64,000 bases of DNA from Coprobacillus sp. CAG:698 (GTDB lineage: Bacteria; Bacillota_I; Bacilli_A; ML615J-28; CAG-698): assembly GCA_000431235.1 (NCBI GenBank), contig HF988734.1, positions 155,848 through 219,847 of the forward strand, written 5' to 3'. Position numbers and translations under genes: made by a program. Below the pieces are notes generated by a model that worked only from the letters and a program-made list of their open reading frames with translations, searched no databases and had not been told where the DNA came from. Below are positions 51,918-57,276 of this stretch, one piece after another. The number at the start of each line of letters is the position of its first letter. Within the stretch, counting starts at the first letter, position 1.

Positions 51918-54900
51918 ATGGATAAAAGTAAAATTAATCAGACAGAGTTAGACTATAGCTGTAGTGTGGGAAAATCGAAAATAAATATATATAATGGTAG
52001 GCTTTTATTTAACCACTTTGATGATAGTATAAATTCAAAGAATTTGAAAATGAGCATAGCACACATATATAACTCACATTTTGAAGAACAAGATACACAT
52101 ATGGGTAATAATTGGAAGTTAAATATACAACAATTTTTGTATTATGAAATGGGAAAATATATTTTAATAGATGAGAACGGCATGAGTCATGATTTTGTAA
52201 TGTGTTCTCAAAATTTATACTATGATACTAGTGGTTTAGGATTAATTTTAAATATTAATAATAATCAAAACATTATAACTGATCAATCAGGTAATAAATA
52301 TTATTTTGAAAATAACAGAATAGTAAAGAAGGAAATGAATTATAATACAACAACATTTGAATATTATCAATACGATGAGAATGGTAGGTTAATAACAGTA
52401 TATAATTCCAAAAAACCTAATAATAAATTTATTTTTGAATACAAAGACAATTTACTTTCATCAATAAAAACAATTGTAAAAGGAAATATAAGTTTTCAAC
52501 TAAATTATTTTTATAATGAATTTAATTGCTTAATAGAGATTGATTATTTAAAAGAAAATATTTGTATAGATAAAGTAATTATTAAAAACGAAAATAACAA
52601 AATGACATATGTATCTTTATTATCTAGTAAAGAGGGATTCGGTATAGAATATTTAGGTAATAAAGTTAGCAAAATAAGTAAAGGCTTAATTGATATATCT
52701 GAAAATATTACAATCACAGAGGACAAATTAAAAATTACAAATAATGTATACTGCAATGATAGCAAGTTTGTTGGAGAAAAAGACATTTCCAAAAAATATG
52801 ATTATGTTATAAATGGATTTCAAGAAAATAAAATTTTATTATTAAACAATTTTACATATCAATATAGCTACACTATCGTACAAAATGAAAAAAACTTAAA
52901 AATGATTTACTATCAAAATGAAAAGGGATATACAGTATCATTATTAGAAGCAAACAATGGAAATGTTAATGATTTGAGAAGTTTAGAAAAAAATCCAGGA
53001 AGATCATTTTTAAATAATGGTATAGATTTAGAATCAATCAATACACGAAAAGCACATTTTTTGTCAACAGACTATATAATTAGTACAGAAAATATAATGT
53101 CTGAAAATTTAAAAGATATAGATAATTATGTAGGAAAAAAATGTAATAAATATTGTTATTTTAACTGTACTTTTTGGTTGAAATTAAGTCAACCATTAAA
53201 TAATAAAAAAGTAAGACTCAAAATTGTAAAGTACAGTGGACTCGATAATAAAGCAGAGGCGTATGCATTAATAGACAATAGTGCGATAAATAGTTGGCAA
53301 TATGTATCAATCCCTATAAAAATTTCTACAAAAGAGGTAAATTTTGCGGAACTTAAATTTGAAGATAATAATCAATCAAATACTTTTAAAATTGCAGATA
53401 TGAGATTATGTTATCAAGAATCGTCAAAACTATGTCTAACTAATGGAACTGACTGGGACTATTTTGATAATATTAAAGAAATCAAGTATATACCAATAGA
53501 TAAAGAAGATGAATATGTAACTCAAACTATTAATGATAACATCTACATTACAGAAAAAGATTTACAAATGATGTATTTAGATAGATTCAAAAAAAATGGG
53601 AATAGTAATATAACTAATGGTTATTTAATGTATTTCTCAAATGCGCAAATTGTAAAATATGTCAAGAAAGTAATATTATCAACAGATACAAAAGATTTTG
53701 AAATGAATTTTTCATCGGATGAATATGGGGCAAATTCAAGAACTAACTTCTTTTATGAAATAAAATCGCCAGATGGTAACATGTATAATTATAATTTCTT
53801 GCATTATTTTAAAAATAAAGATATTGATGGGAAAAAATATGATTGTATATGCCAAATTTCAGAATCTAATAAATTTTTAAAAAAAGATAATGATCATAAA
53901 GAGAGTTTTACTGCTACATATTTTGATTTATATGGTAATCTGCTATTAGAGCAAGATGAATATGGCTTAAAAAAATCATATAAATATGATGAATATAATA
54001 ATCTATTATCAAAAAAAATTTTTAGTGATGAGACAAATGAAGCAATTATCTATAAGTATACAACTTCTGATACATGCGATACTTCATTAGAAAATAATTG
54101 CCTAATCAAAAACGAATATGACTCAAATGATGGTAAGTTATTAAAAACTACTTTTAAGGGAAATGATGAAGATGAAAGTAAAGAATATGTAATAAGTAAC
54201 CAATATCATAGAACTAACGATTCGATAACAAAAACTTTTGATAATTTAGGAGCACAAAATAATATAAAATATGGAAAAAATGGTAAATCCCAATTAATTT
54301 TGCCAATGGATTATAATGCGGAAAATATGTATGGATATGAGGTTGAATATGATCATTTCGGTAATCCAACAAAGTATTATTATATTTCTAGAGATGGAAA
54401 TAATGTAACAAAAAAATTAGTTCAAGAAACAAATATTAATTTAAATAACAATACGATGCAAACTGTTTATCATAGAAATGAACAAGAAAAAGATGTAGTA
54501 AATATCAAACTTGACAAATATGGTAGAACGGAATCTATTAATGAAAATGGTAAAATTACGACATTTAAAAGACAAAATCTATGGGAAAGTCAAGGAGATT
54601 CAGAAGTTGAAGAAATGTATGATCCATATAGTGGGTTAACACATAAATATGAGTATGATTTTTTTAACAATTTATCAGGCTATCAAATAAAAAAAGATAA
54701 TGATATTAGATTAAAAGCTAAAAAAAGCAATTATACATCTACTGAATATGAGTTTAATGATGATGGTATTTCTTCATATGCTAACAATATAGATTTTGCT
54801 TCTGATAAATTCATAAATCCACGTATTGAAAAAACTAAAGATAGAGAAAAACTTTATACAATGTACACATATGATGACTTAGGAAGAACAAAATCGAAAA

Positions 54901-56706: not shown

Positions 56707-57276
56707 ATGTATAACATGGAGAAAAAAGAATTAATTAAATTCATTAAAAATTATTTTAAAGAAAAAGGATTTAATGTCAGTAAAAGAGATTTTTTTGGCC
56801 CTTTGTGTGTTTATGAGAGAGATGATATATATTTTATAATAGGAATTCATCGCTCAAGTTATAGTGACTTACAGTATTTTGAATATAATTATGTTATAAA
56901 TGGTTTATATGATTATGATATAAATGAAAAAGGTGAATATAATTATGTATTAAAATTATGGGAAAGAATAACTGAATTTAGACCAGAAGAATATACCGAA
57001 GAAGAATTAAAACAAAAATTAGATGCTATATATGAAGATTTAATAGAACCTATAGTAAAAGGCGGATTAGACTATATATGTGCTCAAAAGGACTTAATAG
57101 TTTCAAATGAATCAATGTATAATAAAGAAGCACTAGAATATTTACTAAAATATAGAGAAGAAAAAGGAATAGAATGTAATTCATCAGAAAAGTATAAAAA
57201 TATGTATGATAAATATACAAAGAAGCAAAAGAAAAAAAGAACATTCTTTGAATGGTTAAAAGATATATTTTCTTGA
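56707..57276 (+). CDS. Putative cognate immunity protein of the RHS toxin
   Basis: 189-aa acidic cytoplasmic protein encoded 13 bp after the toxin stop; position-based call. Confidence 0.45.
   Translation: MYNMEKKELIKFIKNYFKEKGFNVSKRDFFGPLCVYERDDIYFIIGIHRSSYSDLQYFEYNYVINGLYDYDINEKGEYNYVLKLWERITEFRPEEYTEEELKQKLDAIYEDLIEPIVKGGLDYICAQKDLIVSNESMYNKEALEYLLKYREEKGIECNSSEKYKNMYDKYTKKQKKKRTFFEWLKDIFS

Follow-up and report, generated by a model that had tools for sequence, protein, structure and literature searches.

A signal-less RHS polymorphic toxin of Coprobacillus sp. CAG:698 linked to a sigma factor and holin module: a candidate holin-released bacteriocin-type cassette of gut bacteria

Large clostridial toxins and the bacteriocin Bcn5 lack a signal sequence, contain hydrophobic regions incompatible with Sec export, and are encoded together with a sigma factor and a holin (PMC9527704). 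Furthermore, the RHS-containing toxin YenTc of Yersinia entomophaga is released in specialised cells by a holin-based type 10 system (PMC10847048). Here, a gene arrangement with likeness to these systems is described around the gene of an RHS polymorphic toxin (51918..56693; 1591 amino acids, ATG start; identified by the list of open reading frames (ORFs), Pfam and NCBIfam). It lies in a 64-kb stretch of DNA with a G+C content of ~27%, called the window, to which all coordinates refer; all features of the cassette lie on the + strand. The proteins of the region, the RHS protein (CCY08236.1) and its neighbours, are identical to entries of Coprobacillus sp. CAG:698, an uncultured human-gut Firmicute. 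The link between this signal-less toxin and a sigma factor/holin module is strongly supported by sequence comparison. With a probability of about 0.58, the cassette is read as a self-contained bacteriocin-type system for interbacterial competition, in which an RHS toxin would be produced under sigma factor control and released by a holin. Related loci are given as L-numbers and homologous proteins as P-numbers.

In the Bcn5 locus of Clostridium perfringens (uviA for the sigma factor, uviB for a BhlA-type holin, bcn, amidase), the bacteriocin is likewise large and signal-less and has a hydrophobic region at its C-terminal end; it is accompanied by a sigma factor dedicated to it and by a small holin-like protein that has an N-terminal transmembrane helix and a coiled coil. 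Its holin-dependent release has been proposed and little tested (PMC9527704). However, the Bcn5 toxin is an M14-peptidase/SH3b protein, whereas that of CAG:698 is an RHS cocoon with a nuclease. In addition, the CAG:698 cassette has no endolysin and Hol44 as a second holin, its small membrane protein p102 has no match to BhlA (PF10960) and resembles BhlA/UviB in architecture only, and its sigma factor found no match in the plasmid collection (tblastn; no direct comparison with a TcdR or UviA sequence was made). The pathogenicity locus (PaLoc) of C. difficile, with TcdR, the holin TcdE and the endolysin remnant TcdL, is alike in its autoregulated alternative sigma factor, whose promoter serves the toxin genes, in its phage-derived holin and in its huge signal-less toxin with an internal hydrophobic translocation region. 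Unlike the CAG:698 toxin, the large clostridial toxins are directed at host cells, have no immunity gene and a different fold, and the holin TcdE is of a different family. A counterpart of the endolysin remnant was not found in the CAG:698 cassette. YenTc shares the RHS cocoon, too large for classical export, and a holin-based release cassette. It comes from a Gram-negative host with holin, endolysin and spanin, and consists of a TcB and TcC cocoon with a DPxGL-cleaved toxin and a 2.5-MDa TcA injector, whereas the CAG:698 cocoon is a single chain in which the protease motif is lost and a built-in transmembrane module would carry out translocation.

Among the toxins with the same shell, WapA (Sec signal and wall-binding domain) and the LXG-RHS proteins (type VII secretion) share the YD shell, the Rhs core, a polymorphic toxin and an adjacent immunity gene with the CAG:698 protein, but the latter has neither signal peptide nor LXG domain, and neither a post-core transmembrane module nor an operon with holin, ligase and variable protein has been reported for them. 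Tse5 of Pseudomonas aeruginosa likewise is an Rhs cage with hydrophobic membrane-inserting helices (structural match to 8cp6). These helices are the pore-forming toxin itself, and Tse5 is autocleaved and delivered by PAAR and a secretion system of type VI (T6SS), whereas in CAG:698 they precede a separate nuclease and no T6SS is present. Finally, colicins and pyocins are nuclease bacteriocins with cognate immunity and co-regulated lysis genes, whose release costs a subpopulation of producers; they differ in their unrelated architecture, their SOS/LexA regulation and their Gram-negative hosts. Full-text searches of the open-access literature found no report in which an RHS toxin of a Gram-positive bacterium is linked to a holin, and holins are nowhere mentioned in the 2012 survey of polymorphic toxins (PMC3482391). 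Each kind of system is known separately; what seems to be new is the combination of an RHS polymorphic toxin with holin-associated release.

An earlier note on this DNA had described a 1591-amino-acid RHS protein with an immunity gene downstream, and both ORFs, the second of 189 amino acids, exist in the ORF list. The note had also found the RHS N-terminus to be hydrophilic and free of a signal peptide or PAAR, LXG or WXG domain. This description holds. The best Kyte-Doolittle mean over 12 residues is 0.12 within residues 1-50, and the first hydrophobic segment of 19 residues appears only at residue 1373. None of the N-terminal trafficking domains of the RHS class (signal peptide, PAAR/VgrG, LXG/WXG, TcB partner) was detected with Pfam, NCBIfam or hydropathy analysis, and the reading frame upstream of the ATG, closed by stop codons, allows no N-terminal extension. 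The protein starts with the conserved signal-less segment MDKSKINQTELDYSC (residues 1-20), followed by a plug-type DUF6531 domain (residues 21-93; 28.8 bits against a Pfam cutoff of 24.1); together they span 51918..52196. The start MDxSKINQxEL is common to the N-termini of P0002-P0021 and retained down to ~25% identity. All close relatives begin with MDxSKINQxEL(S/D)YSC...VNLxTGRL, without a hydrophobic N-terminus.

This conserved start could also be taken for a double-glycine-type leader, by which the protein would be exported through two ABC transporters encoded 1.4-5 kb upstream. The sequence INQxELxYSCGAG of some homologues loosely resembles an LSxxELxxIxGG leader, and the two ABC exporters, encoded at 45355-50507, are accompanied by a LytTR regulator and a kinase. 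However, neither ABC protein has a C39 peptidase domain, the Gly-Gly/Ala position is variable (the window has SVG and P0013 has EIG), the other loci lack the ABC genes, and a terminator and a CN-hydrolase gene intervene in the window. Export of this kind is hardly credible, and the candidate was rejected on account of the missing C39 domain, the unconserved glycine and the lack of synteny.

The link to the holin is drawn first from the promoters. The RHS gene lies directly upstream of the sigma factor/holin module (ORF list, Pfam and PHROGs), and the promoter motif which the earlier note had proposed as common to both was recovered as GTTGTTAT-N14/15-CGTGTTAAT. It occurs three times in the 64 kb (51752, 57547 and 58271), where 0 matches are expected from 100 shuffles, always upstream of a gene of the cassette, namely the RHS, sigma factor and p102 genes. 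Copy P1 (51752..51783; GTTGTTAT-N15-CGTGTTAAT) is located 135 nt before the RHS start codon. Copy P2 (57547..57578) precedes the sigma factor gene, which implies autoregulation, and the equivalent position is filled in L025, L046 and L108. Copy P3 (58271..58301) precedes the operon of p102, the holin and a variable protein. The same predicted promoter would drive sigma factor and toxin genes, as is found in regulons of the TcdR/UviA type. Motifs of a related class were identified upstream of the sigma factor, p102 or holin gene in L025, L046 (three copies), L052 and L108 (three copies); those of L108 read GTTGTTTTTT-N12/13-(G/T)ATGTTAC and precede the sigma factor, p102 and holin genes.

P1 is followed by a remnant of the p102 5′ end (51784..51821), consisting of the duplicated ribosome-binding site (RBS) GAGGTGATAA, the ATG and the first codons, which now form an ORF of five codons (MKMNN and a stop codon; 51804-51821). 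Alignment of the P1 region with 58302-58340 showed near-identity through the RBS and the ATG, followed by decay. Since the likeness between P1 and P3 includes RBS and ATG, the RHS-immunity unit sits behind a duplicated holin-operon promoter. A hairpin/T-run scan predicted the borders of the transcription units. The upstream CN-hydrolase gene, which adjoins the RHS gene, ends with an intrinsic terminator (51726..51743; 7-bp stem with four GC pairs and a T-run), which would isolate the RHS unit from upstream transcription. The RHS-immunity unit is closed by an intrinsic terminator with a 12-bp stem and a T-run (57471..57499), and the whole cassette by a terminator-like hairpin (60139..60158) before a copper ATPase gene.

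The second line of evidence is the gene order in related genomes. A search of 5.8 billion proteins yielded ~20 full-length relatives with 25-50% identity, as well as more distant RHS proteins; the identical RHS protein is present on seven gut-metagenome contigs. The relatives share the shell and the transmembrane module and differ in their toxins, which comprise REase-9, Tox-SHH, AHH, PT-HINT and other domains, and orphan C-terminal toxin cassettes exist in the family. In a scan of one genome per species (GTDB) 301 relatives were detected, and 74 loci were retrieved. They belong to uncultured gut Bacilli ("Mollicutes"/RF39-like, Anaeroplasmataceae, Erysipelotrichales, "Staphylococcus sp. CAG:324") and Clostridia (Christensenellaceae and others). 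Their ORFs were labelled with hidden Markov models (HMMs) that were built in successive rounds from three reference loci and the window.

The recurrent order is sigma factor, p102, Hol44 holin, variable protein, a Mur-ligase-like protein of ~450 amino acids, RHS and immunity, with gene ends that often overlap and thereby imply single operons (L010, L011, L018, L025, L036, L046, L052, L080 and twice in L015). In a second order, the variable protein and the ligase are followed by a single-transmembrane protein of 110-140 amino acids and then by RHS. This small protein matches PHROG holin families and comes near the Pfam threshold for Holin_LLH. The two holin types share no Pfam or PHROG family, yet they fill the same slot. 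The neighbourhoods were counted for 36 RHS genes that begin with the N-terminus of the family and are preceded by no less than 3 kb of sequence, a set which includes the window, whose upstream flank holds no accessory genes, and hence 35 related loci. At least one accessory gene was found upstream in 29 of the 36, most often the variable protein (26/36) and the ligase (24/36). Any holin was present in 21/36 (14 of the Hol44 type and seven of the second type), p102 in 10/36 and the sigma factor in 6/36. L108, which of the relatives with known context is the closest (46% identity, the same REase-9 toxin), shows the full canonical order. Compared with it, the window is a derived arrangement, in which the RHS-immunity pair stands upstream behind a duplicated promoter of its own, and from which the ligase is missing.

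It might be argued that the sigma factor, p102 and holin genes are a remnant of the lysis and late genes of a decayed prophage, which came to lie beside the RHS gene by chance. All three match phage protein families in PHROGs, the holin of one strain is broken, and in the window the order is rearranged and the ligase missing. However, Bacilli and Clostridia alike show the linkage, in single operons whose genes overlap, two holin families occupy the slot, and a promoter was duplicated specifically before the RHS gene. Moreover, no phage structural genes lie beside any locus examined, and relatives in viral collections are few and weak: 22 among 2.9 million viral contigs (IMG/VR), compared with 301 in the species-representative genomes, and five weak matches among 50,697 phage records. 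A neighbourhood by chance is improbable. For lack of structural phage genes nearby and of more than few and weak viral relatives, a role as prophage cargo was likewise rejected; in the window and the related loci examined the flanks of the cassette are housekeeping genes, not prophage genes.

As a separate observation, the complete gut phage genome PV036447.1, an Anaeroplasmataceae phage, encodes a signal-less RHS protein of 1836 amino acids (L085:5029-10539). In this protein, the end of the core looks canonical, and a short C-terminal domain is preceded by a hydrophobic stretch rich in Gly and Ala; it does not match the profiles of the family N-terminus or of the transmembrane module.

The module itself begins with a divergent factor of the sigma-70 family (57623..58267; 214 amino acids), identified by TIGR02937 (43.2 bits against a cutoff of 42.9) and PHROG sigma families. 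Its homologues show sub-threshold region-4 matches, and it is 33% identical to the product of the first gene of the L108 cassette. The next gene, p102 (58313..58621), codes for a protein with an N-terminal transmembrane helix and a coiled coil, which belongs to a family of unknown function (phrog_1863, E-value 1e-15). Its probable start is the ATG at 58322, giving 99 amino acids instead of the 102 of the listed ORF; it is highly conserved across loci. Its match to XhlA (PF10779) reaches 14.3 bits at a cutoff of 34.7. The third gene encodes a holin of the Hol44 family (PF16079, 36.3 bits against 29.2; phrog_1129, "holin") with 97 amino acids from the ATG at 58623 (58623..58916); the listed ORF begins at a TTG at 58590. 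Orthologues of 92-102 amino acids are present in 12 distinct related loci. In a subgroup of loci (L008:5592-7508; also L012, L013 and L016), a protein of 638 amino acids replaces the sigma factor and p102 upstream of the holin. It matches phrog_4031 (E-value 7e-142, unknown function) and has a weak Peptidase_M78/IrrE-like match.

The last gene of the module (58909..60063) codes for a variable partner protein of 384 amino acids, which consists of a conserved N-terminus of ~60 amino acids followed by aBig_2 immunoglobulin (Ig)-like domains (PF20578, E-value 2e-17). The N-terminal consensus of the family is F.NR....NRK.L.V......G.I..L.VD..R.EG.V..EGTPLNA..LN. The C-termini are hypervariable and comprise Ig-like domains, coiled coils or collagen-like GDKGEKG repeats (L039:19550-20338, L049:8536-9462), a layout which resembles receptor-binding fibres. 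A resemblance of the N-terminus to phage tail-fibre adaptors was looked for in phage sequences (tblastn), in the PDB (profile search) and in PHROGs, with nothing significant. A single-sequence AlphaFold2 model reached a predicted local distance difference test score (pLDDT) of 31; four homologues only were retrieved for an alignment.

In 24 of the 36 family loci, a MurE-like ligase gene adjoins the RHS gene upstream, often overlapping it (e.g., L010:7410-8765, L108:5501-6874, L007:8064-9629). The protein resembles MurE (E-value 1e-38, far below the equivalog cutoffs) without its N-terminal domain, and its P-loop G(I/V)(T/V)GSxGK(S/T) is intact in all 28 full-length copies. It is the sole cell-wall-related protein of the family cassette, and it is a synthetase. 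A metagenome-assembled genome of termite-gut Erysipelotrichales (WRBM01) holds at least six RHS loci of the family (L027, L028, L030, L031, L044 and L050), four with a ligase of their own and two with a recognised variable protein; L044 and L031 have the variant N-terminus MRWN.T...N.IN.GN. That several of these loci carry their own partner genes suggests that partner proteins may be specific to each toxin.

The remaining parts of the RHS protein were largely as the earlier note had claimed, i.e., a complete YD shell and a core domain. The shell was recognised by PF05593 and TIGR01643 matches (Pfam, NCBIfam), in agreement with an AlphaFold2 model of residues 392-1591 (alignment of 20 sequences, mean pLDDT 80), whose shell matches T6SS Rhs cages, teneurins and TcB-TcC cocoons in Foldseek with E-values of ~1e-30. 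Near the N-terminal part of the shell lies an all-beta insert at about residues 414-526 (53157..53495; strands E23-E135 of the model, pLDDT 73-89), with the family-conserved motifs CSFWLK...NSWQ.V.IPI...KIADMRL (alignment consensus); judged from the model, it may be a binding domain. The Rhs-associated core (residues 1256-1337; 55683..55928) was identified by TIGR03696 with 39.5 bits against a cutoff of 32.5 (NCBIfam). Its autoprotease motif is degenerate. In a residue-by-residue alignment with Photorhabdus RhsA (7Q97), the canonical DPxGL-(x18)-DPxGL aspartyl autoprotease is absent, with PENIES at the PDPIGL site and YNSNT at the second DPxGL. The family consensus is equally degenerate (...IE... 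and YNxxT), and DPDG or DPTG is kept only by the distant P0020 and P0021. With the canonical autoprotease lost, the CAG:698 toxin may stay tethered to its shell.

The C-terminal tip differs from the earlier account, which gave it 330 amino acids, two to three transmembrane helices and a soluble domain of unknown fold. It comprises ~254 amino acids behind the core (residues 1338-1591) and starts with a family-conserved pre-toxin membrane module (residues 1338-1472; 55929..56333), made up of a tryptophan-rich juxtamembrane segment and three hydrophobic helices. The long helices of the AlphaFold2 model (1367-1391, 1394-1421 and 1426-1468; pLDDT ~65-84) coincide with the hydrophobic segments of the Kyte-Doolittle scan (1373-1391, 1396-1422 and 1445-1463). 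The sequence is conserved as L.YDPP.LS.W..FW...GK..AI.L, GG and then G.SF..GF.NYIN.NW.Q.LAIE. Every close relative has a hydrophobic cluster immediately after the core, and in the family members examined the module is always located between shell and toxin. A profile of the module found 185 matches among 1.84e9 representative proteins. Among the 64 of these with at least 280 amino acids, 44 also matched the RHS shell, and most of the remaining 20 start within the core or the module, like displaced or orphan toxin cassettes. In the PT-HINT relatives, the HINT start CF(I/K)AGT follows immediately after the third helix, which suggests that the HINT domain has taken over toxin release there.

A conserved membrane module that always stands between shell and toxin, together with the lost autoprotease motif by which the toxin would stay attached, also fits a contact-dependent toxin anchored in the producer's own membrane. 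The helices would then hold the RHS protein in place with toxin or shell displayed on the surface, and the holin would only aid passage or be unrelated. Those teneurin shells that are not cleaved keep their toxin domain outside the shell. However, a shell of 1370 residues that folds first and has no signal sequence would find no route across the membrane. In addition, with an odd number of helices the shell would stay in the cytoplasm and just ~120 amino acids would lie outside, without an adhesive or wall-spanning part, and the operon linkage to two holin families would be left unexplained. Anchoring in the producer is therefore considered unlikely.

The soluble domain behind the helices was identified as Tox-REase-9, a nuclease toxin with restriction-endonuclease fold (residues 1513-1581; 56454..56660; PF15650, E-value 9.5e-9, 35.8 bits against 27.3). 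It carries GREIH...D...ELKP, corresponding to the residues GxxxH, D and ELKP listed for this family by Zhang et al. 2012 (PMC3482391), while the published YxxE was not clearly found. AlphaFold2 modelled this domain with low confidence.

The gene downstream (56707..57276; 189 amino acids) starts 14 nt past the toxin stop codon and was already taken for an immunity gene in the earlier note. It is a candidate cognate, and its homologues accompany the same toxin type in L108 (35% identity, E-value 1e-24) and in L019, where two double-domain copies stand in tandem. As these homologues open with MEKKELIK, MDKKELIK or MENKRLIK, the true start is probably the ATG at 56716. In Pfam, only a weak DUF4304 match was obtained. 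Relatives with other toxins are followed by different small proteins, including a SUKH-3 immunity protein in L109, and the immunity proteins covary with the toxin type across the family. In another strain (L002), the place of the window's sigma factor gene is taken by a second immunity-like ORF (15435-15626) behind the first, and the contig ends there; the structure downstream of the RHS-immunity pair varies between strains.

Phage-derived regulation and lysis genes next to a nuclease, all of them cytoplasmic, could also form an abortive infection system against phages, in which the sigma factor fires upon infection and holin and nuclease kill the infected cell from within. The hypervariable toxins, orphan cassettes and cognate immunity proteins (such as that of L109) are, however, the signature of interbacterial polymorphic toxins, and a cocoon of 150 kDa would be needless for killing from within. 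Furthermore, PADLOC families match no RHS, immunity, sigma factor, holin, variable protein or ligase. Abortive infection is accordingly regarded as very improbable, and the assignment to a known defence system was rejected; p102 alone weakly matches GajA (E-value 3e-4, 17 bits), probably spuriously.

Under the preferred reading of a holin-released bacteriocin-type system, the dedicated, autoregulated sigma factor would activate three units behind the same promoter, i.e., its own gene, the RHS-immunity pair, and the unit of p102, Hol44 holin and variable protein, which would be a phage-derived module for membrane lesions. Folding in the cytoplasm, the signal-less RHS protein would form a closed YD cocoon that would shield the three-helix module and the Tox-REase-9 nuclease, while the immunity protein would neutralise the nuclease in the producer. 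The cocoon could then leave through lesions made by the holin, whether a subpopulation lyses or the passage is non-lytic. At the target cell, the hydrophobic module would insert into the membrane, and since its helices are odd in number, the nuclease would come to lie on the cytoplasmic side of the target membrane, where it would degrade DNA. In relatives with PT-HINT behind the third helix, this domain would cut the toxin free, whereas here the toxin may remain tethered.

The earlier note had proposed a holin-dependent, type-10-like release. As a prediction, the holin part is well supported by comparative genomics, i.e., by the shared promoter, the operons and the two holin families. The likeness to type 10 secretion does not extend to the enzyme: the holin-endolysin pair that defines type 10, joined by a spanin in diderms, is incomplete, as no endolysin was found, and the cassette is not a canonical type 10 system.

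Several findings weigh against holin-dependent release. No peptidoglycan hydrolase domain was detected in any gene between 50805 and 60063 or in the conserved cassette genes of the relatives, which leaves the passage through the cell wall unexplained. Of the 35 related loci, 14 showed no holin in the 7 kb upstream, and some of these hold just the variable protein, the ligase and RHS. The strain ERZ501773, which is 99.8% identical, has a broken holin gene (window position 58762; L001:11445-11486), where an insertion of 51 bp with an 11-bp direct repeat at its borders leads to truncation to 55 amino acids; the variant may be a true loss of function or may have arisen in assembly. The MurE-like ligase is absent from the window by HMM and tblastn searches, and this absence together with the broken holin of a near-identical strain indicates that the local system may be decaying. 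Finally, the source organism is uncultured.

A more far-reaching version is put forward tentatively, with less than even odds. In it, the family would represent an undescribed delivery route in single-membrane gut bacteria that combines sigma-controlled holin release, targeting by a fibre-like partner and a cocoon-shielded three-helix translocation module in place of the autoprotease, with a MurE-derived ligase as obligatory maturation or assembly factor in most members. Domain content, shared promoter, gene linkage and the architecture of the family are read from the sequences; exit through the holin, enclosure of the helices in the shell, insertion into the target membrane, a targeting role of the variable protein and any role of the MurE-like ligase are inferred.

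How Gram-positive RHS toxins without a Sec, T7SS (type VII) or T6SS signal are exported is an open question, to which this family offers a testable answer. If it is true, holin-mediated toxin release would extend beyond host-directed clostridial and insecticidal Tc toxins to warfare between bacteria of the gut, a new kind of membrane-translocation module preceding the toxin would be revealed, and the question would arise why a toxin comes with a paralogue of a peptidoglycan ligase. The family is spread over many uncultured lineages of the human and animal gut (RF39-like Bacilli, Anaeroplasmataceae, Erysipelotrichales and Christensenellaceae). The cassette is compact, with five to seven genes, and its sigma factor, promoter, holin, cargo and immunity look separable, which would provide parts for engineered, targeted bacteriocins.

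Two further regions of the window were recorded. At 31273-38780, two very large probable surface proteins are encoded, one of 757 amino acids with DUF6273 and one of 1672 amino acids with four MBG_2 domains and a GLUG motif. The genes at 45355-50507, in which the histidine kinase is short and soluble (218 amino acids), the response regulator is of the LytTR type and both ABC exporters lack a C39 peptidase, are not syntenic with the RHS family elsewhere and may form a peptide-signalling or efflux module.

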